Source: an uncultured virus (IMG/VR IMGVR_UViG_3300031565_000002) (lineage: Duplodnaviria > Heunggongvirae > Uroviricota > Caudoviricetes). Taken from it: a stretch of 64,000 bases of DNA. Positions 64 to 40,640 of this stretch are shown here, in pieces. The stretch lies in IMG/VR virus record IMGVR_UViG_3300031565_000002; one strand, 5' to 3'. A model generated the notes under the pieces. The model was not told where the DNA came from and made no database searches. It saw only the letters and a list, made by a program, of their open reading frames with translations. Numbering within the stretch: the first letter of the stretch is position 1; every line of letters begins with the position of its first letter. The position numbers and the translations under genes were made by a program.

Positions 64-146
64 AGACGGTGACAGGGATCGAACCTGCGCCCTTTTACGG
101 GATTACGGATTTGCAGTCCGTTGCCTTACCACTTGGCTACACCGTC
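64..146 (-). tRNA. tRNA-Cys(GCA) with atypical long variable arm
   Basis: Cloverleaf GACGGTG/CACCGTC, loop CTGCAAA, U73, extra CCC-GTAAAA-GGG arm. Confidence 0.85.
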
Positions 147-193
147 ATATGTTCAACTTTATTCACTGTTCATGAATCGTGAACAGGATGAAT

Positions 194-280
194 TGGTACC
201 CAGAAGGAGACTTGAACTCCTATGACCTTACGGTCACATGGCCCTTAACCATGCGTGTCTACCAATTCCACCACCTGGGC
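194..280 (-). tRNA. tRNA-Leu(AAG)
   Basis: Leu-type body, stem CATGG/CCATG closing loop TTAAGGG, CCA encoded. Confidence 0.85.
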
Positions 281-478
281 ATTATTATTCTTTCCTTGAT
301 CCATCATATGAAGCAAATGTTGAATAAGGGTCATCTGAAAAACCCCTTAATCTCCTTCTCAATCTCTTTAACTTTATCATCTTACCTACCTCTACAAGAT
401 CATAAGGATTAACATCAGCATAACTCTTTGCCTTATCCCTTTTCATATAACCTCCTTAAACATCTATAACATAATTTA

Positions 479-556
479 TGGTACCAGTGGGGGGACTCGA
501 ACCCCCGACCTCACGGTTATGAGCCGTGCGCTCTTGACCATCTGGGCTACACTGGT
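479..556 (-). tRNA. tRNA-Met(CAT) (Ile2 not excluded)
   Basis: Cloverleaf, loop CTCATAA, CCA. Confidence 0.85.
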
Positions 557-601
557 ATATTTTAATTACTAGTTCAAGTATCATATAACTTTGAGAATAC
601 T

Positions 602-1168
602 ATGAAAAAATATAAATTAAAATGTATTCATTGTAAAAAAATATTTATTGTACATAAACTAAGAGATTATCATAAAAGAAAGTTCTGTGGAAACTCATGT
701 TCAGCATCTTATAACAATCCTCGGAAACATCGAAAAGCAAAAAAAAGACCATGTTCAGTATGTGGGACTATGTTTATACCACCCAAAAATTATCTCCAAA
801 GAATGCGCTGCGATAAATGCTTCAAAGAAAATAAATTTACAAGAACATCAATAAAACCAAGATATAAAAATTATATAGCTCCTGATATATCAGAAATGAC
901 AAAGGGCAAATTGTTTAAATCAAGAAAATCTTGGCAATCAGCAAGAAGTGCAATAACTATACATGCCATCGTAACATATCATACGAGCAATCAACCTAAA
1001 AAATGTATTATATGCAACTATTCCAAACACATTCATATATGCCACAAAAAACCAGTTTCAAAATTCTCGAATAAAGTATTAATAAAAACCATTAATTCAA
1101 CAAAAAACTTAATTGCATTATACCCTAATCATCATTGGGAGTTTGACCAAAAACTTCTCCAATTATAA
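602..1168 (+). CDS. Zn-finger/HNH homing endonuclease-like protein
   Basis: CxxC pairs and C-terminal CIIC..HICHKKP..NSTKNLIALYPNHH motif; lies between tRNAs. Confidence 0.75.
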   Translation: MKKYKLKCIHCKKIFIVHKLRDYHKRKFCGNSCSASYNNPRKHRKAKKRPCSVCGTMFIPPKNYLQRMRCDKCFKENKFTRTSIKPRYKNYIAPDISEMTKGKLFKSRKSWQSARSAITIHAIVTYHTSNQPKKCIICNYSKHIHICHKKPVSKFSNKVLIKTINSTKNLIALYPNHHWEFDQKLLQL

Positions 1169-1169
1169 A

Positions 1170-1253
1170 TAGCCGGTAGCAGACTCGAACTGCTACGGGA
1201 TTTCTCCCACTGATTCCTGAAACCAGCGTGTCTACCAATTCCACCAACCGGCC
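1170..1253 (-). tRNA. tRNA-Leu(CAG)
   Basis: Leu-type cloverleaf, loop TTCAGGA. Confidence 0.9.
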
Positions 1254-1261
1254 TTAAAAGG

Positions 1262-1390
1262 AGAAGGTCGCTCACAGTAATAACCAGCCGCTTCTGGGTG
1301 GACTTGCTCACCCTTTTACTCTCTGCTGTACCTAAACAAGTCCCCGGCACCAGAGTTCATGAGCTACATTGCAACTGACAGTCACCTTCT
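1262..1390 (-). ncRNA. putative structured ncRNA
   Basis: GC-rich island closed by AGAAGGT/ACCTTCT; internal GGACTTGTT/AGCAAGTCC complementarity. Confidence 0.45.
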
Positions 1391-1406
1391 TCTATAATTT
1401 AATTAA

Positions 1407-1517
1407 AGGTTACCATAAGTGCGCCGATTTCCTTGCGGTCGTCCGTGGTGATTGTCCCTACAATAAGGACTGAAGGGTCTTAGCCACATCGCACATCTCC
1501 ACGGTAGTAGGTAACCT
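1407..1517 (-). ncRNA. putative pseudoknotted ncRNA
   Basis: Closing stem AGGTTACC/GGTAACCT; crossing pairs CCGTGG/CCACGG and GTGCG/CGCAC. Confidence 0.45.
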
Positions 1518-1989
1518 AACCATCTTTTCTTGACTTAAAACTTTTGATCATACTTATAGTAGATTTTACCACACCATAATCATTTGCTATTTCTATTTGC
1601 TTTCTTGAATCTCTCCTGATATCATTAATCTGATCTGTAGTCAATTTACACAAACCACTTCTCTCACCAATTGTACGATGTGCTCTCCCCTTTTTCTTCA
1701 TATCATTCATGTTATCTTGGTGAGTACCCAGAAATAAATGGTCAGGATTAACACATGGGGGATTATCGCAGGTATGACAAACCAGAATCTTATCAGGAAT
1801 AACACCTATCATTTTTTCATATATAAAACGATGAGCTAAAACAAATTTACCATTTCTACCGCCAATTTTAACCCTACCATAACCATCGACATTTCTACTC
1901 CCTTGATACTCAAAACATTCTCCATTAACTTTAATATTAGAGATTATTTTAACAAAAAAATCATATTCTGTAGAAATATATTTACTCAT
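1516..1989 (-). CDS. HNH homing endonuclease
   Basis: AHR..Y, VCHTCDNPPCVNPDHLFLGTHQDNMND motif. Confidence 0.9.
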   Translation of the reverse strand: MSKYISTEYDFFVKIISNIKVNGECFEYQGSRNVDGYGRVKIGGRNGKFVLAHRFIYEKMIGVIPDKILVCHTCDNPPCVNPDHLFLGTHQDNMNDMKKKGRAHRTIGERSGLCKLTTDQINDIRRDSRKQIEIANDYGVVKSTISMIKSFKSRKDG

Positions 1990-2005
1990 AACTTAAACCT
2001 AAATA

Positions 2006-2083
2006 TGGGGGGCCAGACGGGGATCGAACCCGCAACCCCTGGAACCACAATCCAGTGCTCTAACCAATTGAGCTACCGACCCC
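2006..2083 (-). tRNA. tRNA-His(GTG)
   Basis: Cloverleaf, loop TTGTGGT, G-1/C73, CCA. Confidence 0.92.
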
Positions 2084-2370
2084 ATAACTTTCACCCGTCC
2101 ATAAAAGGCTTACATATTTTCCACGCAGCACTCATTTCTCTTCCTGCCATATCTAATGACGTTGATACAGAAAAAAGTTTCTCAGCCAATTTCATTCTTC
2201 CCCTCTTAACATCTGCCGATGCCTGACTTTTAATATCATCACATAACTCATAAATTAAATTGGCTACCTGATCATATGTCATATTTCCAATTTCTCCGGC
2301 AAGATCATGCATGTTCCCTTTAAAGCCTTCTACTTCTCTTGGGTGCTTACTCATTTCTTCTCCGATAATT

Positions 2371-2447
2371 TGGCGGGACGAAGGGGATTCGAACCCCTGA
2401 TTACCAGGTTGACAACCTGGAGACTTAACCGACTAATCGACCGCCCC
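2371..2447 (-). tRNA. tRNA-Asp(GTC)
   Basis: Cloverleaf, loop TTGTCAA, G73, CCA. Confidence 0.9.
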
Positions 2448-2456
2448 GAATGATTT

Positions 2457-2542
2457 TGGTGGGCCGAGGAGGACTTGAACCTCCATACCCCGAAGAGACT
2501 GGATTTACAGTCCAGCGCGATTACCAATTCTGCCACCGACCC
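2457..2542 (-). tRNA. tRNA-Tyr(GTA)
   Basis: Long variable arm, loop CTGTAAA, A73, CCA. Confidence 0.92.
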
Positions 2543-2715
2543 AATAATTTTTAAAAGAGACTCCATCAAGAGTTTCGCTTGAAATGTAGCCCGTGGACAT
2601 AGCCACGGTACGCAGCCGCACGTGAACCTACATCGGACTATATTGATCTGCAGACCTCAAGTCACCAGAGCCATGATAAGTACTATTAAAATATACGTAT
2701 CATCGACACGTATAG

Positions 2716-2738
2716 AAAAACGGGGCCGAAGCCCCGTG
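2716..2738 (-). terminator. intrinsic terminator
   Basis: ACGGGGC-TTCG-GCCCCGT followed by T run. Confidence 0.7.
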
Positions 2739-2827
2739 TTATTTCGATTTCAAACATGTGCTTGTTCATTCTTCTTCAAACCATCAATGTCAAAGAGCGT
2801 TTGCATAAAACATCTCATAATTTATAT

Positions 2828-3020
2828 AAAAAGTAGGCATCCGTTTTGAAAATGCAATGTTTTACCAATTTGACCATCTCCCCATAATTAGAGATACTAT
2901 TATATATCCCTAATGGAGGGGAGACGAGGAATCGAACCTCGAATGGGCTTGCGCCCACTTCATTTACGGTGAAGTGTCTTTACCATGTATGCATCAAAGG
3001 TCGAAGACGCTCTACTTTTT
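2828..3020 (-). ncRNA. scaffold repeat copy 1 carrying circularly permuted tRNA(GTA)
   Basis: tRNA 3' part 2984-2914 ending CCA precedes 30-nt hairpin linker and 5' part 2883-2860; flanked by conserved complementary arms. Confidence 0.8.
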
Positions 3021-3049
3021 ATTTCAAAGATCAAAATTTTATATAAAAA

Positions 3050-3191
3050 AGGTGGTCATCCATTTTGAAAATGCAAGTTTTTTGTATACTAATTGGGAAT
3101 TGAACCCAAGACAGATCGATTCATAGTCGATTGCTCTACCAACTGAGCTATAAGCATTATGTATGCATTAAAGGTCGAAGACGCTCCACCT
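3050..3191 (-). ncRNA. scaffold repeat copy 2 carrying non-permuted tRNA-like (ATG anticodon, no CCA)
   Basis: Same arms; insert 3157-3085 has D, anticodon and T arms and a weak acceptor stem. Confidence 0.75.
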
Positions 3192-3219
3192 CATTTATGT
3201 CAAAGAACAAAATTTATAA

Positions 3220-3398
3220 AAAAAGCAGGCATCCGTTTTGAAAATGCAATTTTTTTATTAAGCTTTTCCCCCATAATCAAGGGTACTATTAAGTACCATT
3301 GATGGTGGGGGAACAGGGAATTGAACCCCGAATCTTTTGGTTATGATCCAAATGCTTGACCTATGTATGCATTAAAGGTCGAAGACGCTCTGCTTTTT
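3220..3398 (-). ncRNA. scaffold repeat copy 3 carrying circularly permuted tRNA(CAT)
   Basis: 3' part 3361-3303 ending CCA, linker 3302-3273, 5' part GGGGGAAAAGCTTAAT 3272-3257. Confidence 0.8.
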
Positions 3399-3411
3399 AT
3401 TTCAAAGATCA

Positions 3412-3497
3412 TGGCGGAAGAGCGGGGGCTCGAACCCCGAAGTCCTTTCGGACGGTAGTTTTCAAGACTACTGGATTACCAATTATCCTACCCTTCC
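3412..3497 (-). tRNA. tRNA-Ser(TGA)
   Basis: Long variable arm, loop CTTGAAA, G73, CCA. Confidence 0.92.
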
Positions 3498-3731
3498 TTA
3501 TATTTTAACACCTCCATTTGTCGCAGTTCTTGCAATCCCTATTGCAAGGTTTTCTTTTGACAATGGCTTTGCCTTTATTCTTCTTTTTTTTCTTCCCCAT
3601 TCTATATTCTCAACTTTCACAGGTTGTCCACCATTACGTTTTCTAAATCCCTGTTTTCTTATTCTTTCCTGTTCATCTAAATGCCATTGTCTTTTACTAT
3701 TCATCTCATACATCGTTAATACTCCAATTTA

Positions 3732-3817
3732 TGGCGGAGAGTGGGAGGCTCGAACTCCCAAGTCCTTTCGGACGGCAGTTTAGCAAACTGCTGGGTTACC
3801 AATTATCCTAACTCTCC
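3732..3817 (-). tRNA. tRNA-Ser(GCT)
   Basis: Long variable arm, loop TTGCTAA, G73, CCA. Confidence 0.92.
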
Positions 3818-3825
3818 GATTAATT

Positions 3826-3901
3826 TGGTGCCACCTTCCAGAGTTGAACTGGAGACACCTGGATTTTCAGTCCAGTGCTCTACCGACTGAGCTAAAGTGG
3901 C
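3826..3901 (-). tRNA. tRNA-Phe(GAA)
   Basis: Cloverleaf, loop CTGAAAA, CCA. Confidence 0.92.
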
Positions 3902-4028: not shown

Positions 4029-4062
4029 AAAAAAAGCCCTACTTCTTTCGAGGCAGGGCTTT
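4029..4062 (-). terminator. attenuator terminator 1
   Basis: AAAGCCCTGCCTC-GAAA-GAAGTAGGGCTTTTTTT; 5' arm also complementary to GGGCAGGG in the leader. Confidence 0.85.
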
Positions 4063-10414: not shown

Positions 10415-10488
10415 TGGGCGATACTGGAATTGAACCAGTGACCTCTTGCATGTCAAGCAAGCACTCTAACCATCTGAGCTAATCACCC
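10415..10488 (-). tRNA. tRNA-Val(GAC)
   Basis: Cloverleaf, loop TTGACAT. Confidence 0.92.
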
Positions 10489-10492
10489 TTTA

Positions 10493-10738
10493 TTAAAAAT
10501 TATCCATTATTTTCTCGATCTCATCTTGCTGATCCCAAACGAAATTAAGATCATCGAGATTCATCCCCTTTGCTTTCCCCATTTTTTCCTCTTCACCTTC
10601 CTTCTGATAATACTCTCTCTTTTCCAACTGAGGAGAACGTTTATTCCAGCTTACTATCTGCAGACGTAATTTATTCCCCCTCATTTCTGTTTCATTTAAT
10701 ACTTTAAGCACATCACATGTTATCTCTTTCTTTGGCAT
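10493..10738 (-). CDS. PC4/YdbC-like ssDNA-binding protein
   Basis: L.IVSWN.R.PQLEKR..Y ... GKAKG pattern. Confidence 0.6.
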   Translation of the reverse strand: MPKKEITCDVLKVLNETEMRGNKLRLQIVSWNKRSPQLEKREYYQKEGEEEKMGKAKGMNLDDLNFVWDQQDEIEKIMDNF

Positions 10739-11726
10739 AAAAAACCTCGCTTGTTAGAGAAAACAGTTCAGCCATACTGTCAGTCGAAACATCTTCCATC
10801 CCTATCTTTTTCATCTCCACATAAATTTTACCGGCAATATCAAACACAAAATAACGATTATTGCCACCATCGTCATCTTTGATATGGATAGAATACTTTT
10901 CAAAATCAGATTCAAGTTTCTTCTCAAACTCATCTTCTGTAATCTGGCCAGTATCCTTTAACTGTAATAATTCTAAAAAATTATTTTTTTTTAAGAGGTT
11001 CGATATAACGGTAAGATAACACTTTTCTTTTTGTCTAGGTAAAAATGTATTTTTCATCATTCTTTTTTTAAATTATCCCATTCCTGTCGGATATTTTCAA
11101 GCCTATCCAATATCCCCTGATCAGACCCACACATAATACCGCTAATCTTATCCATAAGGCTAACTGCTGTTTTTGCAGCAATTAATTTATTTCTACCGGC
11201 AAACGATGTAGATTCCTTTGACATTTCATGTAGTCTATTTATTATCCTATCAACTTTCTCATAACTATCATCACTGCCATATATAATACCAATTATATAT
11301 TTCATGCAAACGTCTGACAATAAATCAGCAATAAATCTTGCATTTTCATCGTCAAACTTTTCAACACTATGTTTGCCAGTGATATAATCAGGAGAAAGTT
11401 TCTCGACAGCCTCCTGAACAAGACATAAAAAATCTTCCGAAAAATCTTCATCGACTTCAGCATTTATTAATATTTTCATTTCAATACACCTTTAGAAAAA
11501 TTCTAATCTATTATTAAAGTGTTCAACCTTTAAATGCTTGACCATTTCCCTTTCGTCTGGTGATAAACCCATAATAACCCTACCAGGCAAGTGCCTTTCC
11601 TGAATAGGATCACCATTACGTAGAGCAATCTCCACATTTTTGCCATGAGGACAACCAACCATATGCCCCAGAAACCACCCTTTACACGCTAACTGTGCTG
11701 CAAATCCATGTAAATCTCGTCTCATA

Positions 11727-29669: not shown

Positions 29670-29734
29670 GATTATATCCTTGTTTAAATTGTTGTTTTAG
29701 TTAATAAATAATCGACAATCAAGAATATAACCAC

Positions 29735-29788: not shown

Positions 29789-29857
29789 ACGATTCTCCTT
29801 ATTAATAGGGTTTTTAAAATTTTCACTTATCATTAAGTTAAATTGATTCATAGTTAT

Positions 29858-29886
29858 AATATAACAAACAAGACTAATTTCGTCAA
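29858..29886 (-). promoter_or_regulatory. sigma70-type promoter
   Basis: TTGACG-17 nt-TATATT. Confidence 0.75.
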
Positions 29887-29953
29887 TAAATTAATAACTT
29901 TTTTTATAAATACGAATTATTAACTTATTTATTTGCCATCTTTTAAAAAAGAT

Positions 29954-30028
29954 TGGAGCGGTAGATGGGACTTGAACCCACAACCATCACCTTGGAAGGG
30001 TGACGCTCTACCATTGAGCTACTACCGC
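29954..30028 (-). tRNA. tRNA-Gly(TCC)
   Basis: Loop CTTCCAA, U73, CCA. Confidence 0.92.
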
Positions 30029-30031
30029 ATT

Positions 30032-30688
30032 TTATTTAAATTGTACATTCTTTTTTATATCAAGTTTTATATTAAATTTATCAAAACCAGCAAATCTTAA
30101 CATCGCTACTTGATCAGCATCGTAATTGAGCACTCTAACAGTATCAAATATCCGAAATTTATCAGGAAATAATTTCTGCAATTTACTTGCAATTACATAA
30201 TAATCATCGTAATATTTATTAATAGCGTCTTCTTTAGGGAGATCATACTTTGGATACATAGGATCCCATTGACCATAATCATCGTAATCACCATTTTCCC
30301 AATGCTGCGATTTCCTAGATGTCCAGTGATTAAATTCTCCCCTTTCTGATTTTGTCGCCTTCATAAAACTCCTAACAACAAGGTCTTTATCTCTCTTTAG
30401 ACAGATAACCTTAAACTCAACATTACGCTTAATATCCCTATCTTCCAATTTCAAAATAGTCTCAATATTAGGCAGATGATAAAAAGATACATCGCCAACA
30501 ATAGCCCCAGGTCTGGCCAATAAATTACTGATTATCCTATACATAAATATAGGATTGGCTCTCCAACTTGTCCATGTCCGGCCATACTCATGAGAAACAT
30601 ATTTAACATCGGGCTGCTCATTCAACAATGCAGCAAGGCTTTGAGTTCCACAACGTCCGGTACCAATACCAAAAATAATTCTTTTCAA
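30032..30688 (-). CDS. sulfotransferase-like P-loop protein
   Basis: IFGIGTGRCGTQSL..LL and L.RD...VRS motifs. Confidence 0.6.
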   Translation of the reverse strand: MKRIIFGIGTGRCGTQSLAALLNEQPDVKYVSHEYGRTWTSWRANPIFMYRIISNLLARPGAIVGDVSFYHLPNIETILKLEDRDIKRNVEFKVICLKRDKDLVVRSFMKATKSERGEFNHWTSRKSQHWENGDYDDYGQWDPMYPKYDLPKEDAINKYYDDYYVIASKLQKLFPDKFRIFDTVRVLNYDADQVAMLRFAGFDKFNIKLDIKKNVQFK

Positions 30689-31045
30689 ATCTTACTCCCG
30701 TTACTTTAATTCTATCCAATGACCATATTTTTTACTGGTCATACTAAACACCCATTCCTGCCTTAACCTACATCTTAAACAAGTTCTATTCTTATTTTCA
30801 AAAACAATATAACCATAAGAATCCACAAAAGGACGACGTATCTCTTGGTGCCATTCATGTAAATTTAGTGAACAAAGAATACTTCTCCTTTTTCCATTAT
30901 TCATGTTCTCCTTATGTAACAATAAAGTTATAATGATAATGTAGATTTTCACTACTGGCTTCTAGCACGTTAGAGGAGTCACACCTCCGCTCGTTTAGGG
31001 AATCAGCACCCCGCTCTACCACCACTATAACTGCGCTATTTTAAA

Positions 31046-31119
31046 TGGGCTGTGAGGGACTTGAACCCCCGGCAACCTGATTATGAGTCAGACACTCTAA
31101 CCAACTGAGTTAACAGCCC
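31046..31119 (-). tRNA. tRNA(CAT), probably Ile2
   Basis: Loop CTCATAA, GGGC acceptor; sits in the block whose leader has ATA codons. Confidence 0.8.
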
Positions 31120-31125
31120 TAAATA

Positions 31126-31956
31126 TTAAATCAACTCCCTCGCTCCCTTGAGCATATCCCTTGTAACGCTTAAATCATTGCAATACCAAGCGTCCCACAT
31201 ATAATCTTGAATATACCTGTATGGGATATAACCATAACCATCAGCGCCCCAATTCTCTCCCCAACTATTCTTAACTTTTATAAGCCTTTTATTATCATCG
31301 TACCCACATGCACATAAAGCATGTCCGCCATAACAATATTCTGGATTCGCCGGTCTTGAAATAACGCCAGTTTTATCTACGAAAAAAATCTCTTCAAAAC
31401 AAGCAATCCCTATTACAGCCGGTGTTTTACGGAGTGCCAATAAAAGCTCATCAAGATTATTAATCCTAAAATAAGTACCAACCAAAGACCATCTAGCAAC
31501 AAGTTTTGCCCATCCACTAGGCTCACCCTTCACTTCATCAGAATAAGGCCAAGCCTTTTCGCATGGGACTCCGATACGATTCAAAACTTTCATTGCTGCC
31601 CTTATTGATGTCCCTTCTAAATCGGGCCACTCATCAATCTTTTTGCATGACCAATAAATCCAAGACTCTGATAAATCATAATACTTACCGTCTCTATGGT
31701 CAAATTTACCGGCTTCAACTTCTTCTTTATGTTCCTTTTGCTCCTGCCACTCCTTCATTGCAGCGACAGCAAACCCAACGCAACTTCCTAAACCTCCCTG
31801 ATTTTTAACGGGCGACATAAGATTGCTATGGTCAACAATAGTAGGGACATCTGAATTAAACCTACTTTTTAACTCATCAATACTGAAACTATTCAAAAAA
31901 GGAAAATCTCTCTTATCGTCAGGATCTTTCCTGAGATTTAATTTGAAATCCATCAT
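31126..31956 (-). CDS. papain-family (C1) cysteine peptidase
   Basis: NQGGLGSCVGF, GGHA, KNSWG..WG..GY. Confidence 0.92.
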   Translation of the reverse strand: MMDFKLNLRKDPDDKRDFPFLNSFSIDELKSRFNSDVPTIVDHSNLMSPVKNQGGLGSCVGFAVAAMKEWQEQKEHKEEVEAGKFDHRDGKYYDLSESWIYWSCKKIDEWPDLEGTSIRAAMKVLNRIGVPCEKAWPYSDEVKGEPSGWAKLVARWSLVGTYFRINNLDELLLALRKTPAVIGIACFEEIFFVDKTGVISRPANPEYCYGGHALCACGYDDNKRLIKVKNSWGENWGADGYGYIPYRYIQDYMWDAWYCNDLSVTRDMLKGARELI

Positions 31957-32000
31957 AGTAATCTCCCTATGTTAAATTTATCCCTTATTATAAATAGATT

Positions 32001-32269
32001 AATCGTTCTCGTAAGCGGGATTCTGTTTATACTCTTACATTTACCTAATGCCCACGACCCGTTCATTATAGCCCTGCTCACCGACTAGAACTGTTTATGG
32101 TTGCATCATCGGTAGTGTAAACGATAGACGGGTGGACTTTCATCCGGTTAGACATACCCACCACAGTCACCTGTTAGAACCAGCTTTTAAGGTATCTATC
32201 TCCTACCTTCAGCAGAGATGTCCCGACTTTCCTCCCCCGATTTAACGAAGGCGTAAGAGCGGAACGATT
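32001..32269 (-). ncRNA. rnpB: RNase P RNA (compact)
   Basis: GAGGAAAGTCGGGA and AACAGAATCCCGCTTA form P4 with bulged U; P1, P2 (CTCTTAC/GTAAGAG), P3 present. Confidence 0.88.
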
Positions 32270-32641
32270 AATCTGTATAAATATATTGTAATAACTTTTC
32301 TCTATCTAACTGTAAATCATAAATTTTAGCATTAATTACACGAATTTGATCCTCTATTTCTCTCTTCCTGCGCTGATAATATTCATTCTCACTTATATCT
32401 ACAGGTTTAATATCATCAAAATATTTAAAATACCCTCCACGCTTATCCATTAATCTAATATCAAGTCCACATCCACTTTCACTATTTTCTGGATAAAAAA
32501 TAAATGGTTGATCAAAAAACTGTATAAAAATATCACCTTTATCAAACAACCCTTCAACTGTCCTATGGGCTTTAATTGCCTTAACCTTTTTCATTATATC
32601 CCCTTACTCGTTACATCGATAATCTGTTTCATACTATTCAC

Positions 32642-33082
32642 CTAAACTAGTGAATATTTCGGTTTCATTTTATCAACAAAGAATCGGATACAAAATTCCC
32701 TTAACCCCAAATAATCTACAGGGGTTTGTATCTGTTCCATGACTAATTCACTTGGCTTTGGCTTTCCTTCACGGCATTTCTTTAAACTCCTATATGATGT
32801 TTTAGATAAATCAATTTCATACTTATCCCATATTAATTCATGTAATAAATTAGAGAATTCACTTTCATATCTCAAATGGCATTCGTGACATAAACAACAA
32901 TAATCCCACTCAAAATAATACCAATGAATTTCCCTTAATTCCTTTCTAACATCATCTCTTAATTTATTACTATAACAACTACCTATTACATGGTGCTTCG
33001 TTAATTCTTCGCAATCTTCTACTCCACAAACGCAACACCTATTCTTCCTTTTTATCTGATACCCTTTATTCTTAAACTCCAT
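32642..33082 (-). CDS. HNH-like protein
   Basis: CCVCG..LTKHHVI ... LCHECH. Confidence 0.55.
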   Translation of the reverse strand: MEFKNKGYQIKRKNRCCVCGVEDCEELTKHHVIGSCYSNKLRDDVRKELREIHWYYFEWDYCCLCHECHLRYESEFSNLLHELIWDKYEIDLSKTSYRSLKKCREGKPKPSELVMEQIQTPVDYLGLREFCIRFFVDKMKPKYSLV

Positions 33083-33273
33083 CTAATCTTTCTTCCCATA
33101 TCGTGCTTTTTTATATTTAGGAGTTGCTTTTTTAGGTTGAAGTTCATGAATACGTTCTTGCAATCTCTCAATACATGCATTAACAATCTTCTTACCTCTA
33201 CCGGCATTGTATGTCTGATGGGCTGCTTCCATTACCAAATCTGCACACTGTATGCCAAATTTCTCTCTGCGTG

Positions 33274-33594
33274 TTATTTTTTTAGAACTCTCCAATCAAC
33301 CTTATCCTTTTTATTATTGTTACACCTAAAACAGGCAACCACCAAATTATCAGGATCATATCTATCTCCACCTTTACCTAATGGTACAACATGATCCACT
33401 GTCGCAAGCTCATCTTTATTCTCTGTCTCTGCCTTTAAATTAGTTTTCCCACAATAAAAACATTCCAGAACATCAAACTGACCTAAATACTCTGACCTAA
33501 AATTCACCCATTCTTCAACTTCAAGCCGATGATATACACTGGTCAAAAGAACTAATGCTGCTAATGACTTTTTATATACGGCTCCTCGGTACAA
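33274..33594 (-). CDS. HNH endonuclease
   Basis: CFYCG, TVDHVVPLGKGG, NLVVACFRCNNNK. Confidence 0.88.
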   Translation of the reverse strand: MYRGAVYKKSLAALVLLTSVYHRLEVEEWVNFRSEYLGQFDVLECFYCGKTNLKAETENKDELATVDHVVPLGKGGDRYDPDNLVVACFRCNNNKKDKVDWRVLKK

Positions 33595-33609
33595 ACGTTA
33601 TGTTTCATC

Positions 33610-34194
33610 TCAATCTCCTTGCAATAATTCCTGACATTTTTTAAGGCATTCTTCAACTCTATCATCAAGACTCTCTGTTTTCAATGTAATTAAATGAATC
33701 GGAGGAAATAATCTAAAGATAAACTGAATCATTTGATCTGACTCATTTCTCCAATCGTCCTGAAAATGTTTATCCGGTCTAACTCCATCATCATCTGGTT
33801 TCCATAATGGAGGTAAATGAAATATAATGTCATACCTTTGAGGACAATTAATCTTATTCATCATTTTAAAAATATCATTAACATACATAGTATCTTTTAA
33901 ACTATTAACATCTCTAATTTCCATAGCATACAAAAACCCCATATGAATCGGACTATCTGTAATAGTAACATCTGTCTCTTTTGCTGGTACCACATTCTCC
34001 CATTCAAGTTGCTTTTGCATAATCTTATATTGATCAAAAACATTGTCAACAGGTCCGTGCTTCGCCAAAAACATTCTGGCATATTCTGCAACCAACTCAA
34101 CCTTACCTATCCTATCATAAGATCTAGCTGCAACACCTCTTGCCACACTCGATTTACCGGCACCTGGAACTCCAACGAAACCAATTCTCTTCAT
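33610..34194 (-). CDS. NadR-type ATPase/kinase (AAA_28-like)
   Basis: GVPGAGKS, EYAR, ITDSP, DDGVR. Confidence 0.78.
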   Translation of the reverse strand: MKRIGFVGVPGAGKSSVARGVAARSYDRIGKVELVAEYARMFLAKHGPVDNVFDQYKIMQKQLEWENVVPAKETDVTITDSPIHMGFLYAMEIRDVNSLKDTMYVNDIFKMMNKINCPQRYDIIFHLPPLWKPDDDGVRPDKHFQDDWRNESDQMIQFIFRLFPPIHLITLKTESLDDRVEECLKKCQELLQGD

Positions 34195-34213
34195 TAAATT
34201 ATCCCTAATTTTC

Positions 34214-34289
34214 TGGCTGACAGGAGAGGAATTGAACCTCCAACGACCTGATTAACAGTCAGGGGCTCTGCCAATTGAGCTACCTGCCA
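34214..34289 (-). tRNA. tRNA-Asn(GTT)
   Basis: Loop CTGTTAA, G73, CCA. Confidence 0.92.
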
Positions 34290-34546
34290 GTAATATTGTT
34301 GTAATCCTATTTATAGTTTCTTCTGAATCAAATACACACGCTCGATCTGACTGCGCAAAACATTCCAACAACCCAAAGGCTGTTGACTCTTCTCTGGTAT
34401 TAGGGAAAGGATATTCCCAATCACCAAATGTTATCTCTCCTTCATCGTAATCTTCAACATGTGAAAAAATTGTTCCAGAATCCCCATAATAAGTAACCCT
34501 TACCTTCATCTCTCATTCTTCCTAATAATATTTACATTTCAAGTTA

Positions 34547-34624
34547 TGGCTGGGGCGGTGGGACTTGAACCCACAACCTTCGGTTTAACAGACCGATGCT
34601 AACCGCCAATTGAGCTACACCCCA
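34547..34624 (-). tRNA. tRNA-Asn(GTT)
   Basis: Loop CTGTTAA, CCA; irregular D arm. Confidence 0.85.
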
Positions 34625-34779
34625 GTAAATTTATAATAGTACGGTGCCCGGATTCGAACCGGGAAAGACCATTGACCATTACCCGCACCGGTACTTTTCC
34701 TAGGTATTTTCTCAGTGCAAGCTCGTGGATTCGAACCACGCCACCATACCACAGGGAAACTATGCATGTTCCCCTAATT

Positions 34780-35067
34780 TTATAATTTTTCTTTTATTCT
34801 CCACCATTGTTTAATTGCATCAGAACTATCTAATTTCATAGCACCATTATTTATGGCAAGTTTCCTTTTCGCAGAAGTTAAATCAAAATGCCTTAACCCC
34901 TTTTCATTAATCTCATTTTTCGCTTTCAACCCTATTTTCTTTGCAAATTCTAACAACTCATCACGAGTATCGGCAAACAAATGACACATCATCTTTGCTT
35001 CACCTTTAGCCCCGACCTTTTTACTTAATAACGGATCAACATAAACCATATCACCACCTATGTTCAC
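34780..35067 (-). CDS. DUF4031-like protein
   Basis: VYVD, CHLFADTRDEL..FA..IGL, HFDLT..KR..A. Confidence 0.75.
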   Translation of the reverse strand: MNIGGDMVYVDPLLSKKVGAKGEAKMMCHLFADTRDELLEFAKKIGLKAKNEINEKGLRHFDLTSAKRKLAINNGAMKLDSSDAIKQWWRIKEKL

Positions 35068-36828
35068 CTATCTATAAAAAGAATCTTCTACTTTCGGCTT
35101 ATTGACTCTCCATTGCTTTACCTGGTATTCAGGATATCTTCTGGCTGCATTACCATTCCATGATGCGACCACTATCCTTTTTTCGGTATCTACTTCATTA
35201 ACTAATACAGAGTGCACAACCTTATGCCTAATGGTCGTATTTCCCATTCTCTGAGAAGTAACTGTCCATAAGGTCTGTCCAGGCTTAATACGATCAAAGA
35301 TTGCCATCATTTCCTCCCATTTCCTCTATCTCCCTTACAGCGTTATACAAAACTTCCCCTGCCTCATTCAATGCTTTCCTTGCCAAACATTCTGGACATT
35401 TCTGATATGGTGACGAATCATCACAATCACCTTCACAATTATCCATATCTGCATATTTATCTAAAAATTCAATTCTCTCTGCAAAATTCATACTTTACCA
35501 ATCATAATCAGTTAAATCAATATCTTCTCCACACGTACATTTAACTTTAGATATTTCACCTAACGATGTAGGCGTAAAAGAAAATGTGAGCCTGCCACCA
35601 ATAGCCCCCTGCTTCATAGGATCCCCAAAAGCACATCTTCCCTTATGCTCTTCATCCCATTCTTTAAACTTTTTCAATTGTTCTTTGTCAAGACTAAAAC
35701 TCATATTATTCTTCCTTCATTTTAACTTTTGCTTCTGTAACTATACGATAAACAGGAAATGATACTGTTTTAAATTTATCTTGAGAAAAATCTAAAACCC
35801 TAAATTTCTTATCATCACAAAATCTCAAATCTGCTATATATCCTGTACTATCCCTTGTAATCCTGATATCACTAAACGCTATTTCTTCCCTGTCTATATC
35901 TTGTTCCTTAAACAACCACACATTATTAAATGAATCTACGACCAGTCTACTTGCCCATGCAGTATCCCCGATATCAATATCACTAGCAATGCTAAATCTA
36001 TCAATATATTTTTCAGGCAACTTTTCATAACAGGCAATTAACTGATCTAGTACAATTATACTGTCAGCCGGTTCAACTTTAAGATTATTTTTAATTTCTA
36101 CTTGAGATTTATCACAAAAAGACCAACACATCGCGATAATAACCAAAACAGTCATCACCGACAAAAATCTCGTACTAAACATCGATACCTCCTACTCATC
36201 GGTTACTTCTTCTGTTTTTACCCCTTCTTTTTCATTCTCCATGTCATGTACAGCCATAAGACTCAACGTCAACAAAACAATCATACAAAGAATAATAATT
36301 ATTCTTGTCATCGGTGAATCAATATTAGGAATCATTTTTAACTCCTTAAAACGTTAATGCGCTTCGTTATAATAATTTATATACTCATCGATCCCAAAGG
36401 TCTGTTCACAGTTAGGGCAGTCCATATCAGAAGTATCTGCTTTAACTTTAAACTCATACTCACACCCAGGGCACTTTGCATCTTTAAGCCCAGCCTCACA
36501 ATCACAGCCCATTGTTACCTTACCAATAGGTTTAGGTTTCCTTACATCCATCCTTACCCCTCTTTCTACTATCTCTCGACAGTCCTTACGAAAGTCAAAA
36601 AACTTTTAATAAATTTCTTTTGAATCTTGCCTTTTTCATCATAAGCGTCTACGGGGCACATATCATCCAATTGTTCAAGTTCATGCGCCATAAATTCAAC
36701 ATACCACTCATTCCCCTGTCTATCTTTCACAATACTCATCAAATTTTCTAAAGGATCTCTACCACGAAAACAAGTAATCTTATGATTCCCCAATTTACAT
36801 GTCATACCCATCTCCAAATAAAGGTAAA

Positions 36829-36901
36829 TACCCCGTAGGAGAATCGAACTCCTGTTACATGGCTGAAAACCATGTGTCCTAAGCCACTGGACGAACGGGG
36901 C
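36829..36901 (-). tRNA. tRNA-Glu(TTC)
   Basis: Loop TTTTCAG. Confidence 0.9.
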
Positions 36902-36905
36902 AGAA

Positions 36906-36980
<75 letters not shown>

Positions 36981-37021
36981 ATTATATTAAATAACTTTAT
37001 TTTCATACAGATAAATCAAAA

Positions 37022-37093
37022 TAGCCCGTAGGAGAATTGAACTCCTGTCGCAAGAATGAAAATCTCGCATCCTAACCACTAGACGAACGAGCC
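37022..37093 (-). tRNA. tRNA-Glu(TTC)
   Basis: Loop TTTTCAT. Confidence 0.9.
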
Positions 37094-37099
37094 AAAAAT

Positions 37100-37176
37100 T
37101 GGCGGGAATGACGAGACTTGAACTCGCAACAACCGGCTTGACAGGCCGGTACTCTAACCAATTGAGCTACATCCCC
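37100..37176 (-). tRNA. tRNA-Asp(GTC)
   Basis: Loop CTGTCAA, CCA. Confidence 0.92.
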
Positions 37177-37381: not shown

Positions 37382-37410
37382 AAAAAAGCCCCATCTTTTG
37401 GATAGGGCTC
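37382..37410 (-). terminator. attenuator terminator 3
   Basis: AGCCCTATC-CAAAA-GATGGGGCTTTTTT; antiterminator GGGCTCA near 37430-37436. Confidence 0.82.
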
Positions 37411-37611: not shown

Positions 37612-37684
37612 TGGAGCGGAGGGGGCTTGAACCCCTGACCTCAACGCTGCCAGCGTCGCGCTCTCCCAACTGAGCTACCGTCCC
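37612..37684 (-). tRNA. tRNA-Ala(GGC)
   Basis: G3-U70, loop CTGGCAG. Confidence 0.9.
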
Positions 37685-37918
37685 TTAATTTCTAAAATGT
37701 TTTTCATCATACCTTGCTACTTCGTTCCATATCACCCATGATTCCTTGCCAATTTCCATAGCTGTTTCATTTACCATTCGCATAATTCTCTTCTTTTCTT
37801 CGTCGTCTCTGATGCCCCAATCTCGTAAAAGCAATTCGGTAATTCCCATTATACCAGTTAATTTGTTATTGATTCGGTGGAGACTGTCCATTACATTTCT
37901 AGCAGCATCTTCTTTCAT
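37685..37918 (-). CDS. stand-alone HisKA-like helical protein
   Basis: LHRINNKLTGIMGITELL resembles an H-box. Confidence 0.45.
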   Translation of the reverse strand: MKEDAARNVMDSLHRINNKLTGIMGITELLLRDWGIRDDEEKKRIMRMVNETAMEIGKESWVIWNEVARYDEKHFRN

Positions 37919-37995
37919 CTCTCACCTGCCTGCTAAATGTTTATGTTTGTACTTACAACAGGCACTTACATCTGGTTAATTATATTTATCCTTTC

Positions 37996-38071
37996 TGGTG
38001 GAGCGAGGGGGGATCGAACCCCCGACCTCAACGTTGCGAACGTTGCGCTCTCCCAACTGAGCTACCGTCCC
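37996..38071 (-). tRNA. tRNA-Ala(CGC)
   Basis: G3-U70, loop TTCGCAA, CCA. Confidence 0.92.
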
Positions 38072-38074
38072 ATA

Positions 38075-38150
38075 TGGTGGAGCGGAGGGGGCTTGAACCC
38101 CTGACCTGTTGGTTGCAAACCAACTGCTCTCCCAACTGAGCTACCGTCCC
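38075..38150 (-). tRNA. tRNA-Ala(TGC)
   Basis: G3-U70, loop TTTGCAA, CCA. Confidence 0.9.
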
Positions 38151-38472
38151 ATTATTCCGTCTTACAACTCTCAAAGAACCTTAATTCCCGCATTGTTAAT
38201 TCCCCCCTTCTTCGAGGATTCCCACAACACCTTACTGCTGAACATATCTTTGTAGTATTTCTAAGGTGTCTTGAGTTCTTCTCAATCAACTCTGCCGTTT
38301 CTTCCTTTGTATGTAAATCTGAACAATAAAAGAGAAATACACGCTTATAACTTTTACGTTTTCCAACTAGAAAACGCTCACGCCTATCATTTGGATGAGA
38401 CATAGTTTAACTCCTTTGCTTAAACTGTCCTACGCCATCATCCTTTCTCCTTCCTTGTTAAATTACAAAAAT

Positions 38473-39390
38473 CTATTTTAAATATTCGTATTCTACTTGA
38501 TTGGCTATTGCCTCTCCAAGGCTTCGATAATCATCAATATACTTAACCTTGTCCATCTTCTCTAACTTACTATTTATCAAACAATCAACCCTATTAAAAC
38601 TATAATTCTGTATCGCTTGCGACATATCATTTGCCAATCTCACCCTACTTGAAAGGGACATAACCCTTCCTAAACCGCCATCTATAGGGTCGGCATAAAA
38701 CAGTAAATCTGACGCATTTCCACCCTTCTTTGCCTTCTTAAAAGACATTCCCCGAAAACAATGTCCCGCTCCAAGCGACAATATATGAACCTTATTGGTT
38801 TTATCTACTGCCTTTTGAAGCCATCCTTGCCGAATTGTCTCAGTAACAGTTTCACCTAAAGGACAATTCTCATTACCGGTTCCACCATCAAGCCAAACCT
38901 GTTCAGATTCTTTGTCTACAATATGCCCGAAGTACAATGGTGCAGCGAAACTTCTGGCAATAGCATCTATTAATTTAATTTTACCATCTTTCTTTTCCCA
39001 CCCCTTAAAGAAGTGAGTTCTACCGTCAACCTTGCTAGCAGAAGTACACATAAACTTTGTAACGCAATCAGACATTAATACATCAGCGCCAACATGTTCA
39101 CTAAAAAATTCTATAAACGGTTCTCTGCTGTATTTAGGCTGCACCAATGGGATTCTCAATCTCCACTTGAACACGTCCGGAAGAACTTTTAACATAAGTT
39201 CTTCTAATCGAGTTGCATCTATCTTACCGGATGCAAGTGCTCCACAGATTATAGCACCGATGCTAGTCCCAACCATCAAGTCAAAGATCTCGTAAATTGG
39301 CTTCCCTAATAACTGTTCAATCTCCTTTAAAACTGTCATAGGGATAACTCCCTTTACGCCACCGCCATCTACTTCTAGTATCCTAATCAC
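38473..39390 (-). CDS. patatin-like phospholipase
   Basis: DGGGVKG, GTSIG, AAPLYF, DGG. Confidence 0.92.
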   Translation of the reverse strand: MIRILEVDGGGVKGVIPMTVLKEIEQLLGKPIYEIFDLMVGTSIGAIICGALASGKIDATRLEELMLKVLPDVFKWRLRIPLVQPKYSREPFIEFFSEHVGADVLMSDCVTKFMCTSASKVDGRTHFFKGWEKKDGKIKLIDAIARSFAAPLYFGHIVDKESEQVWLDGGTGNENCPLGETVTETIRQGWLQKAVDKTNKVHILSLGAGHCFRGMSFKKAKKGGNASDLLFYADPIDGGLGRVMSLSSRVRLANDMSQAIQNYSFNRVDCLINSKLEKMDKVKYIDDYRSLGEAIANQVEYEYLK

Positions 39391-39421
39391 CGATACCCCC
39401 TGATATAATGTTAAAAGGTAA

Positions 39422-39498
39422 TGGTTGGGGTGGGCAGAATTGAACTGCCGACGCCTCGGTTATCAGCCGAGTCCTCTAACCAACTGAGGTACACCCCA
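39422..39498 (-). tRNA. tRNA-Ile(GAT)
   Basis: Loop CTGATAA, CCA. Confidence 0.9.
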
Positions 39499-39591
39499 AT
39501 AACATTATTACACTTTATTTTATATCAAAGAACTATCGTGTTTTCATAATAGGGGTGGGGGGAGTTGAACCCGCCCACTGACACGGCTTAT

Positions 39592-40219
39592 CTTACCACC
39601 ATAGCTTTCGCTACCATTTCTGTTTGTGGTCTGGACTTTCCCTTGACCATATTTTCAAGAACTTAGGCCCCTCCCGTCAAGTCTCTACACCTTCCATTTT
39701 TCAGGATTGGCTCGGGATTGCCATCAGCATCACCTGTTAAAGTTTCCCCGAATTTGAGAGGTTCTACTTTCTACGTTTCCATAGAAGCACTCATATTTTA
39801 ACAACCCAATCAACAAGGAGGTTGTCTTTTGCCCATTTAACCTTACTCGACTGATTATTTAAAGGAAAATCTATACGAAGTACCATCGTTCCCTTTGGTG
39901 CTTCATTAATGTCTATAGTATAATATTCATCATTTTCATAACAATAAACGATAAAAACATCTATAAGACCATCGTAATATTTTTTATAACTTCCTTTCGT
40001 ATTAACCCTTGACGAGCATGTATTAAAGGCTACACAACCATTACCATCCAGCCTTCCTGTTTTACATTGAACTCTAAAAAACTTATGAGTTCCATCTACT
40101 AATAAATCATATGGCTGATTATCGCCAACAGGAACACTAACAACCTTACCAAGTTCCATTAGCCTAGTGATTATCTTCTGTTCGGTTAATTCTCCTTTTA
40201 CTTTTGGATTATTATTCAT
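39592..40219 (-). mobile_element. group I intron (IC3-like) with homing endonuclease ORF
   Basis: Core motifs AAATTCGGGGAAAC, AATCCCGAGCC, GTAGAGACTTGACGG, AAGGGAAAGTCC; U at 5' splice site, terminal G. Confidence 0.88.
39791..40219 (-). CDS. intron-encoded PD-(D/E)XK endonuclease (I-Ssp6803I-like)
   Basis: KGELTE, P.GDNQPYDL, RVQCKTG. Confidence 0.88.
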   Translation of the reverse strand: MNNNPKVKGELTEQKIITRLMELGKVVSVPVGDNQPYDLLVDGTHKFFRVQCKTGRLDGNGCVAFNTCSSRVNTKGSYKKYYDGLIDVFIVYCYENDEYYTIDINEAPKGTMVLRIDFPLNNQSSKVKWAKDNLLVDWVVKI

Positions 40220-40356
40220 AAGACCGCCGCTCTAACCTCACATGAGCTACACCCCCATAAATTGGAATATACAGCCACATATTCGACCATCGAATACACA
40301 ACTCACCAAACTTACTGAATGTAGCACAAATCTCATTTTCATCTCCATTTTGACAT

Positions 40357-40392
40357 AAAAAAAACTCTGTCGGGTTTTGCCTGACAGAGTTT
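40357..40392 (-). terminator. attenuator terminator 4
   Basis: AAACTCTGTCAGG-CAAAA-CCCGACAGAGTTTTTTTT; antiterminator GCCTGACAAGAG 40420-40409. Confidence 0.85.
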
Positions 40393-40424
40393 AAAATTCA
40401 TGTTTAGTCTCTTGTCAGGCCGCA

Positions 40425-40505
40425 CTATCCTCCGCCTTCTGCATTAATAGCAGCTTCATCTATAATATTAGTGCTTCTTATTATCCTGACAGTTGTTGCT
40501 AACAT
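40425..40505 (-). CDS. leader peptide 4 MLATTVRIIRSTNIIDEAAINAEGGG
   Basis: GAGGA RBS; hand translation; not in ORF track. Confidence 0.78.
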   Translation of the reverse strand: MLATTVRIIRSTNIIDEAAINAEGGG

Positions 40506-40611
40506 AAAAAGTTAATCCTCGTTTAAATCCTAGTTTAATACCTTACTTAACTATTTTACTATTATGGTTTAAAATATCGGTATTAAACCAAAAAAGTTTA
40601 TTGTTGTTCCT

Positions 40612-40640
40612 AATATACCCCTAAAACCCAAAAAAGTCAA
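40612..40640 (-). promoter_or_regulatory. sigma70-type promoter
   Basis: TTGACT-17 nt-TATATT. Confidence 0.78.

Follow-up and report, generated by a model that had tools for sequence, protein, structure and literature searches.

Predicted leader-peptide attenuators ahead of the tRNA gene blocks of an uncultured huge phage

On the usual view, large phages carry tRNA genes to compensate for a mismatch in codon usage, for the loss of host tRNA, or for defences that target tRNA. A stretch of 64,000 nucleotides from an uncultured virus of the Caudoviricetes (IMG/VR record IMGVR_UViG_3300031565_000002), called the window from here on, raises a further question: why should a phage sort its tRNA genes by amino acid into blocks, and why should a small open reading frame (ORF) and a terminator stand at the head of each block? 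An earlier note on this DNA read the arrangement as ribosome-mediated attenuation of the type known from the trp and his operons. That reading is supported by the geometry of the elements, by the enrichment of particular codons, and by co-variation among related phages, and we consider it quite probable that the elements in the window are ribosome-mediated (leader-peptide) attenuators that gate the tRNA blocks, each leader written in the codons of its own block.

ARAGORN finds 40 tRNA genes in the window, all on the minus strand, from 64 to 39498, and 39 of them are also matched by Rfam at gathering score; one intron-split tRNA-Ile completes the set. The four amino-acid blocks that had been claimed are real, in that 27 of the 28 pairs of tRNAs for the same amino acid share a block, against a mean of 7.6 and a maximum of 19 in 100,000 shuffles. 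Block 1 begins with the split tRNA-Ile(UAU) (exons 40256-40220 and 39591-~39550, span 39548..40256, minus strand, as are all the blocks and the elements at their heads) and continues (37612..39498, by ARAGORN and Pfam) with tRNA-Ile(GAU), a patatin-like ORF, and tRNA-Ala with anticodons UGC, CGC, and GGC. Block 2 (23569..37176) comprises Asp, Glu, Gly, Glu, Asn, Asn, a tRNA with anticodon CAU, Gly, a suppressor tRNA (CUA), Glu, four Arg, and Gly, interspersed with ORFs and an RNase P RNA-like gene. The amino acids listed for this block in the earlier note were right, with the CAU tRNA at 31046 being no more than a candidate for the Ile2 listed there. Block 3 (10415..20487) opens with a metallophosphatase ORF and a split tRNA-like element, followed by Lys, Val, Pro, Lys, Gln, Pro, Gln, Lys, Pro, and Val among ORFs. 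Block 4 (64..3901) holds Phe, Ser, Ser, His, Tyr, Asp, His, Leu, Met, Leu, and Cys and continues past the start of the window.

In the intergenic gap ahead of each of the four blocks lies a short ORF of 21 to 41 codons with an ATG start and a motif resembling a Shine-Dalgarno (SD) sequence, and at all four heads the order of parts is SD, short ORF, antiterminator, and intrinsic terminator, the last three of which the earlier note had described. Leader L1 (40505..40425) has 26 codons, encodes MLATTVRIIRSTNIIDEAAINAEGGG, and ends in TAG (SD GAGGA); L2 (37506..37441) has 21 codons, encodes MKHLINNRFERNDNREGEGIP, and ends in TAA (SD AAGGAAG); L3 (20665..20597) has 22 codons, encodes MSVIIRKPVLVVKPQPVQKPGL, and ends in TGA (SD GGAGA); and L4 (4218..4093) has 41 codons, encodes MNPFKTLAICSLTHIHYSDMLWTSLRSDFSLVMGRVKGQSG, and ends in TAA. 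Each is followed by one terminator (40389..40365, 37408..37388, 20538..20515, and 4059..4036, respectively), a stem-loop of -11 to -13.5 kcal/mol that lies 32-58 nt past the leader stop and precedes a run of six to eight T. The motif TTGACWTTTTT-N-TATATTA occurs exactly three times in the 64 kb, where 0.00 occurrences are expected, at 40640, 20735, and 4690, and these are the heads of blocks 1, 3, and 4 only: promoters P1 (40611..40640; TTGACT..17..TATATTA), P3 (20706..20735), and P4 (4661..4690). L2 has no promoter of that type and stands after block 1 in series. Where the window is free of tRNA genes, over 23 kb, there are two terminator-like sites and no leader-attenuator; the sole ORF picked there by the rule described below is the in-frame end of a gene of 341 amino acids. 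Within block 4 there is a clean extra terminator (2736..2721) without a convincing leader. A 22-codon ORF before it (2818..2750) was considered as a fifth leader and rejected, because it has no SD and only 6 of its 21 codons match the tRNAs that come after it (p 0.27).

In all four leaders of the window, the terminator's 5' arm can instead be drawn into a second hairpin, at or near the stop codon, with energies of -15.1 to -28.9 kcal/mol. The RNA following L1 (40357..40420) can be divided into segment B (40420-40409), which begins 4 nt past the stop, segment C (40389-40379), and segment D (40374-40365), followed by eight T. B pairs with C to give the antiterminator (-17.1 kcal/mol), and C pairs with D to give the terminator (-15.1 kcal/mol). 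Codons 5-7 of the leader (40493-40485) form a segment A, inside the ORF, that pairs with B, and the pairings A:B, B:C, and C:D reproduce the 1:2, 2:3, 3:4 layout of trp-type attenuators. After L2 (37380..37436), GGGCUCA (37436-37430), again 4 nt past the stop, pairs with UGAGCCC; antiterminator and terminator stand at -15.1 and -15.3 kcal/mol, with six T after the latter. After L3 (20508..20599), the antiterminator (-18.8 kcal/mol) starts in the stop codon itself and spans the whole 5' arm of the terminator (-15.5 kcal/mol, seven T). In L4, the 5' arm of the antiterminator (GGGCAGGG, 4120-4113) lies inside the ORF, five codons before the stop, and the fold reaches -28.9 kcal/mol against about -21 kcal/mol, with flanks, for the terminator (GCCCUGCCUCGAAAGAAGUAGGGC and a run of seven T, 4029..4059). 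Because the 5' arm of the antiterminator is at the stop codon, the geometry fits attenuation of the trp/his type. The effect of a ribosome was modelled by masking its footprint at the stop codon or at a stall codon and comparing minimum free energy (MFE) structures at equilibrium. A ribosome at the stop codon leaves the terminator as the MFE structure in all four leaders. The antiterminator takes over in L3 when the ribosome is stalled at codon 11 or 17, and in L4 when it is stalled at codon 21; in a codon-by-codon model with a different footprint, stalls at codons 1-14 of L1 also give the antiterminator as the MFE structure.

A leader that gauges the supply of certain tRNAs would be expected to be rich in the codons those tRNAs read. 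Readability was judged by standard wobble rules, and the background was codon usage in 98 of the window's long ORFs. On this basis, the own-block tRNAs can read 9 of 25 codons in L1 (background 0.13, p 2e-3, the split tRNA-Ile(UAU) being counted), 15 of 20 in L2 (background 0.34, p 2e-4; should the CAU tRNA at 31046 be Met and not Ile2, 13 of 20 and p 3e-3), 14 of 21 in L3 (background 0.22, p 1.4e-5), and 20 of 40 in L4 (background 0.30, p 6e-3). Each leader matches its own block best. Eleven of the 12 off-diagonal combinations of leader and block give p >= 0.29, the sole exception being L1 with block 2 (p 0.045), the block that lies downstream of block 1 in series. The earlier claim that leaders are rich in own-block codons thus holds, with diagonal p values of 1.4e-5 to 0.025, and the enrichment check of leader codons against anticodons that had been set beforehand came out positive. 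In-frame windows taken from real genes never reach the score of L2 (0 of 14,586) or of L3 (0 of 14,488, with a maximum of 12); the score of L4 is reached by 105 of 12,626 and the lower score of L1 by 526 of 14,096. L3 carries exact Watson-Crick codons for all nine distinct anticodons of block 3, including the rare CCC, CCG, and GTC, for which the analytic probability is 2e-7 (1 in 2,000,000 simulations). A readable codon is present in L4 for 11 of the 11 anticodons of its block (p 2e-3) and in L2 for 10 of 11 (p 3e-3).

Related phages were a second check set in advance, namely that leader and tRNA content should co-vary, and this was found in G001, G003, G004, G005, and G009. Homologues of the window's ribonucleotide reductase (RNR) at 45-65% identity mark a clade of huge phages, and two metagenome loci, L131 and L172, met by chance, show the same leader design; the contig of one of them is the viral record G001. 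The RNR of G001 is 61% identical to that of the window, and its 37-38 tRNAs lie on one strand over 57 kb. G001 was used for a prediction made by hand, in which strong terminators were listed first and the sequence upstream was read only afterwards. Each of the five strong terminators that precede groups of tRNA genes turned out to stand behind a leader with its SD and a promoter of the type seen in the window, and all five leaders match their own blocks (p 5e-5 to 3e-3). The leader MIATTTIRIEGREGEGEGTIMS precedes Glu, Glu, Gly, CAU, Gly, Thr(CGU), Arg(CCU), and Arg(UCU); MLMIVKKVKVVVKRRKGSHRGEFRLFI, with its Lys, Val, and Arg residues, precedes Lys, Lys, Arg(ACG), Val, and Arg(CCG); MFIMNQNNPNPQQPRTEGSLGGILLA, with Asn, Gln, and Pro, precedes Asn, Gln, Asn, Gln, Pro, Pro, and a suppressor tRNA; a leader rich in Ser, Phe, Asp, and Ile precedes Phe, Asp, Asp, and Ser; and MKSTSSTLQSLHTVLTSAAWTLLYSYLCANTIVAGRNF precedes Cys, Leu, Tyr, Leu, Leu, Ala, Trp, His, Thr, Ala, Thr, Ala, and Ser. 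The partition of the tRNAs has shifted between the two phages: Lys, Val, Pro, and Gln are under one leader in the window, and G001 has Lys/Val/Arg under one and Asn/Gln/Pro under another, with leaders that differ accordingly. In other relatives, MLTLRQTQPQQPRQPRSNMLM stands before Pro, Gln, Pro, Gln, Arg, and Arg (G003), MKIFFQQPQPQQPRNITWRGLLLK before Pro, Gln, Pro, Pro, Arg, and Gln (G004), MTIRRQPQQQRRPQPGRCMLK before Pro, Gln, Pro, Pro, Arg, Gln, Arg, and Arg (G009), and MKTTRIANRARENRITINGNDETGG before Thr, Glu, Ala, Asn, Asp, Asn, Gly, Gly, Arg, and Arg (G005).

The search was then put in the form of a rule, fixed after the window, L131, L172, and G001 had been inspected by eye and before any sequence of G002-G010 was fetched or read. 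It takes each terminator with a folding free energy of -9 or lower outside tRNAs, together with the longest ATG ORF of 12-50 codons whose end lies 5-75 nt upstream of it and which has an SD-like motif; the block is made up of the tRNAs on the same strand as far as the next such leader. It was applied to 13 records: the window, the tRNA regions of G001-G010, and the two metagenome loci (G011 has no tRNA). In the window it picks the same four ORFs, L1-L4. In all it yields 20 leader/block pairs, from the window, G001, G002, G003, G006, G009, and L131, and for 14 of the 20 leaders their own block ranks first among the 20. The combined Fisher p is 4e-26, and the summed z of 55.6 compares with a permutation mean of 0.4 and maximum of 31.7, so that none of 100,000 permutations of leaders over blocks reaches it. 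A lax form of the rule, without the SD, gives 36 pairs that include many junk ORFs, and still a Fisher p of 1e-27 and 0 of 100,000 permutations. In G002 (L257, 128289..128155) and G008 (L268, 22550..22425), a single leader of 41-44 codons precedes one array of all the tRNAs (46 and 36); since these arrays cover all amino acids, the own-block test is uninformative there. The G002 leader has 20 kinds of residue and the G008 leader 19 plus the start Met. As candidates for leaders that cover all 20 amino acids, those of G002, G008, and G006 were set aside, being only modestly unusual (P 0.012, 0.03, and 0.04, respectively).

The folds, too, recur. Across records, 19 leaders were compared with dinucleotide-aware shuffles, and in 13 of them the structure that joins the stop-codon region to the terminator's 5' arm is the more stable (P<=0.05); the partner of the antiterminator nearest the 5' end lies from -17 to +6 nt from the stop. 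L1 of the window and the leaders G001-A, L131, and G005 are orthologous, with ..T-x-R-I.. in common and related hairpins. The trp-like 1:2 pairing inside the ORF is kept in all four through different sequences (GUCAGG/CCUGAC, AUCAGG/CCUGAU, and CUCAGG/CCUGA-G), a comparison that consists of separate folds of the four orthologues and not of covariation in an alignment. The parts, their geometry, the match of codons to anticodons, and its co-variation across phages are matters of observation, and, as far as a sequence permits the question, the defining features of leader-peptide attenuation are found in these elements, the 1:2 pairing, which would enforce termination on an untranslated leader, being seen in L1 and its three orthologues.

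From these observations we infer leader translation, coupling to the host RNA polymerase, the direction of the switch, and its physiological trigger. The host polymerase would start at a phage promoter resembling those of sigma-70 and transcribe a short leader that is translated. Where decoding is fast, the ribosome would reach the stop codon and cover the 5' arm of the antiterminator, which lies 0-6 nt past the stop or just before it; with that arm covered, the terminator hairpin would form and the block would go untranscribed. Where the matching tRNA is scarce, the ribosome would stall upstream, the antiterminator would form, and the polymerase would read into the tRNA block. Before the phage tRNAs accumulate, or after host tRNA is lost, slow reading of the leader would lead to transcription of the block, and once supply is restored the ribosome would again reach the stop and the terminator form. 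Each block would in this way have negative feedback of its own on tRNA supply, and a given set of tRNAs is probably made only when the codons they read are decoded slowly.

Is it tRNA or amino acid that such a switch would sense? The choice of synonymous codons offers some guidance. In a test conditioned on the amino acid and confined to cases where some synonymous codons cannot be decoded by the block, the own block can decode 94 of 141 leader codons, where synonymous usage predicts 69.8 (z 4.3); the lax rule yields 125 of 204, with 96.7 predicted (z 4.2). The arginine families provide examples. The G003 leader uses CGA, CGT, and CGG, and its block has anticodons UCG and GCG; G009 uses CGT, AGG, CGT, CGC, and CGG with CCG, CCU, and ACG; L2 of the window uses AGG, CGG, and AGA with UCU, CCG, and CCU; and G005 uses AGG, AGA, CGC, and CGT with ACG and UCU. 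Exceptions among Arg codons are mostly in the 3' ends of leaders that overlap hairpins, as with the two AGG codons of G001-B. The match of synonymous codons to anticodons therefore favours sensing of tRNA species over sensing of amino acids.

That test bears on the most probable alternative, which we nevertheless regard as unlikely: that the elements are true attenuators that sense amino-acid starvation or overall translation capacity and gate the whole early region, proteins included. Every block does contain many protein genes, a stalled ribosome is blind to the difference between an absent and an uncharged tRNA, and the single leaders of G002 and G008, with 20 and 19 (plus start Met) kinds of residue, resemble a general gauge of translation. 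Still, the content of a leader tracks its own block and not others (first for 14 of 20, with 0 of 100,000 permutations), the match extends to synonymous codons (z 4.3, and the Arg families), which sensing of amino acids would not predict, and extra tRNA would not relieve amino-acid starvation. Starvation, or attack by an anticodon nuclease, as the trigger of attenuators gating tRNA blocks is speculation.

Several observations weigh against regarding the elements as tRNA-sensing attenuators. L1 stalled at codons 13 and 20 keeps the terminator as its MFE structure; the two folds of L2 are nearly isoenergetic, and the terminator remains the equilibrium minimum under a stalled ribosome; and the same persistence of the terminator is seen in G001-A and G005. 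In these cases the switches would therefore need to be kinetic. G001-C and L172 have no antiterminator in the region searched. Without the split tRNA, the enrichment of L1 is modest (6 of 25, p about 0.023-0.025), and the window has no tRNA-Thr or tRNA-Trp, though L1 and L4 contain those codons. L4 lies about 440 nt downstream of P4, and its SD is weak and 14 nt away. Promoter-like sites inside the blocks, against which the earlier note had cautioned, are indeed present, for example at 37370-37342, right after the L2 terminator, and could bypass the switch. The blocks are long, up to about 14 kb with at least 20 ORFs. Stalling does not by itself distinguish a missing tRNA from an uncharged one. 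Among the relatives, the rule finds no leader in G007, in G010 (RNR 50%), or in two of the three arrays of G004; the ORFs it picks at G002 128612 and G006 148329 do not match their blocks; and L131, whose block is cut by the end of the locus, gives only p 0.21. The L172 leader had been matched by eye at the level of amino acids, a match we discarded as it is unenriched by codon (14 of 29, background 0.50).

A terminator that stays the MFE structure wherever the ribosome stands, as it does for several leaders, would be less awkward if the short ORFs controlled the fate of the RNA in some other way, whether by protecting it through translation from Rho or nucleases or by affecting precursor processing, with the hairpins as processing or stability elements. 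Precursors of tRNAs need heavy processing, and the window encodes an RNase P RNA-like gene. We think this somewhat less probable than the starvation account, and improbable in its own right, inasmuch as all four hairpins of the window are canonical intrinsic terminators with runs of six to eight T and the competing hairpin overlaps the 5' arm of the terminator and abuts the stop in most leaders, a geometry specific to attenuation. That the ORFs are chance frames or functional micropeptides, the terminators mere insulators between units, and the codon match coincidence or hindsight is hardly credible: blocks and leaders were at first chosen by eye, enrichment in L1 and L4 is only modest, and the G002 128612, G006 148329, and L172 picks show no match, but the rule fixed before G002-G010 were read still gives its Fisher p of 4e-26, the hand-made prediction in G001 matched, no window of a real gene reaches the score of L2 or L3, and the tRNA-free part of the window is without such an element.

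Ribosome-mediated attenuation thus remains the reading we prefer, and it resembles several known systems. Multivalent leaders occur in enterobacteria before thr (Thr and Ile codons) and ilvGMEDA (Ile, Leu, and Val codons), and leaders also precede trp, his, leu, and pheA. Like these, the phage elements have a short translated leader, as we suppose it to be, with codons for more than one amino acid, alternative hairpins (2:3 and 3:4, and in L1 and its orthologues also 1:2), an intrinsic terminator, and a stop placed so that a ribosome finishing the leader blocks the antiterminator. They differ in that the cargo is tRNA genes and not biosynthetic enzymes, that a leader may have codons for anything from 2 to 20 amino acids, with a match to anticodons that extends to the choice among synonymous codons, and that several units in one genome partition its tRNA set. 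Also close is the pheST attenuator of E. coli, in which a leader with Phe codons precedes the genes of phenylalanyl-tRNA synthetase: there too a component of the translation apparatus is attenuated and slow decoding raises its supply. However, pheST regulates a synthetase and not tRNA, senses a single amino acid, and is cellular. T-box riboswitches (RF00230) likewise take the state of a specific tRNA as input and give a choice between terminator and antiterminator as output, but they bind uncharged tRNA directly, without a ribosome or an ORF. In the window, Rfam gives no match to the T-box family RF00230, and none of its leader families (Trp, His, Leu, Thr, Phe leaders, etc.) appears anywhere at gathering score or at E<=1.

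The arrangement of many tRNA genes among small ORFs and homing endonucleases is like that of the tRNA clusters in T4-like, T5-like, and huge phages. In the main text of a survey of huge phages (Al-Shayeb et al. 2020; PMC7162821), there are no occurrences of attenuat, leader, terminator, RNase P, or intron. The earlier note had remarked that it knew of no description of such control for phage tRNA arrays, and in full-text searches that did not extend to subscription journals we found no published account of leader-peptide attenuators before tRNA genes.

A broader proposal, held with less assurance than that of attenuation itself though still on the favoured side, is that a clade of huge phages possesses an anticodon-resolved tRNA homeostat. 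Stalling would switch the modules, detect the loss of host tRNA, and resupply exactly those tRNAs that are short, a counter-defence in which sensor and effector are combined and which can be read from the sequence, and these would be the first tRNA genes under leader-peptide attenuation. The loss of host tRNA could stem from codon-usage mismatch, from host shut-off, or from anticodon-nuclease defences. Attenuation by a leader peptide is textbook knowledge, but its known targets are the genes of amino-acid biosynthesis and of a few synthetases, and tRNA genes are not known to be among them; the same logic appears here to place tRNA supply under feedback, one module at a time, in phages with nearly complete sets. 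If so, the sorting of isoacceptors into blocks in these genomes is explained, and the sequence of a leader predicts which tRNAs its block is meant to back up. The long-standing question of why large phages carry tRNAs would become testable with simple reporters, the leaders would form a natural toolkit of codon-specific sensors of translation, and host defences that target tRNA may meet inducible and not only constitutive expression of phage tRNAs.

Several minor features of the blocks were noted in passing. The earlier call of an Ile tRNA at 40256 was sound, as the joined exons are called tRNA-Ile(tat). The 628-nt intron (40219-39592) matches the group I family RF00028 locally at 36.5 bits (E 1.4e-7), below the gathering score of 50; it interrupts the anticodon between positions 34 and 35, and T is the last base of the 5' exon, G the last of the intron. 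Inside it an ORF (40219-39791, -) encodes a PD-(D/E)XK endonuclease (Pfam PF11645, 1.8e-33), a family to which the homing endonuclease of a cyanobacterial tRNA intron belongs. In the tRNA region of G001, two group I introns (L207 2944-3239 and 12433-12677) exceed the gathering score.

Just past the L2 terminator (37370-37190, -), the promoter-like site at 37370-37342, which has a TG, is followed by a 14-codon ORF with a strong SD (MNFTKLLTFFDISG) and by a hairpin abutting tRNA-Asp, which might be a bypass or a second layer of control. The RNase P RNA-like gene of block 2 (32270-31996, -) is class A-like and reduced (58.3 bits against a gathering score of 100; local E 2.4e-17): it spans the full model and keeps the conserved P4 strands while several helices are missing. 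In positions 1-60000 of G001, no RNase P RNA was matched at E<=1e-3. The suppressor tRNA with anticodon CUA is at 29080-29006 (-), and the stop codon of L1 is TAG (40427-40425); in G001, a leader ending in TAG heads the block with that phage's tRNA(CUA). TAG is an ordinary stop in 25 of the 98 ORFs of the window.

The split tRNA-like element at the head of block 3 (19740..19469, -) has a good acceptor stem and D arm and a degenerate T arm, with about 200 nt between; ARAGORN, allowed introns, calls it a doubtful Ala(agc), and Rfam gives no match to it, even locally. In block 4, a tRNA-His with the unusual anticodon AUG (A34) lies at 3157-3084 (-), and a standard tRNA-His(GUG) at 2082-2006. Tandem modules of about 185 nt, at 3420-2720 and 4640-4290 (-), each contain a 28-nt motif (GAGCGTCTTCGACCTTTAATGCATACAT and variants) immediately 5' of tRNA-His(AUG) or of truncated tRNA-like sequences. 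Two sub-threshold matches resemble tRNAs: one of 27.6 bits at 4598-4532, which lies between P4 and L4, and one of 25.2 bits at 3370-3314.

The window is present in six DNA sequencing runs labelled soil metagenome, five of which are flagged as possible sources; no RNA run is listed. Compared with phage proteins, its RNR finds its best matches in uncultured huge phages (32% identity), and a protein search shows that RNR homologues exist at 85% (P0002) and 72% (P0003) identity. In a collection of cultured phages, neither a DNA relative nor a close protein relative was found. Scans of viral contigs with the phosphatase, a 308-residue ORF, or the RNR homologue P0002 as single-protein queries returned no relatives of the window, and a scan with the promoter motif gave 118 loci, none related to it. 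A scan for the terminator pattern produced six loci, one of them relevant, and a scan of metagenomes for RNR 80 loci, only three of which have tRNAs. The minus strand is densely filled with small ORFs, and the Pfam content is that of a large phage: ribonucleotide reductase, helicase, dUTPase, dNMP kinase, methylases, HNH and PD-(D/E)XK endonucleases, and a TnpB-like gene. The last of these, in the phage early region (61246-60035, -), is similar to IS605 OrfB and has OrfB_IS605, Cas12f1-like TNB, and helix-turn-helix domains. Two genes with cold-shock domains lie at 56888-56664 and 14277-14065.

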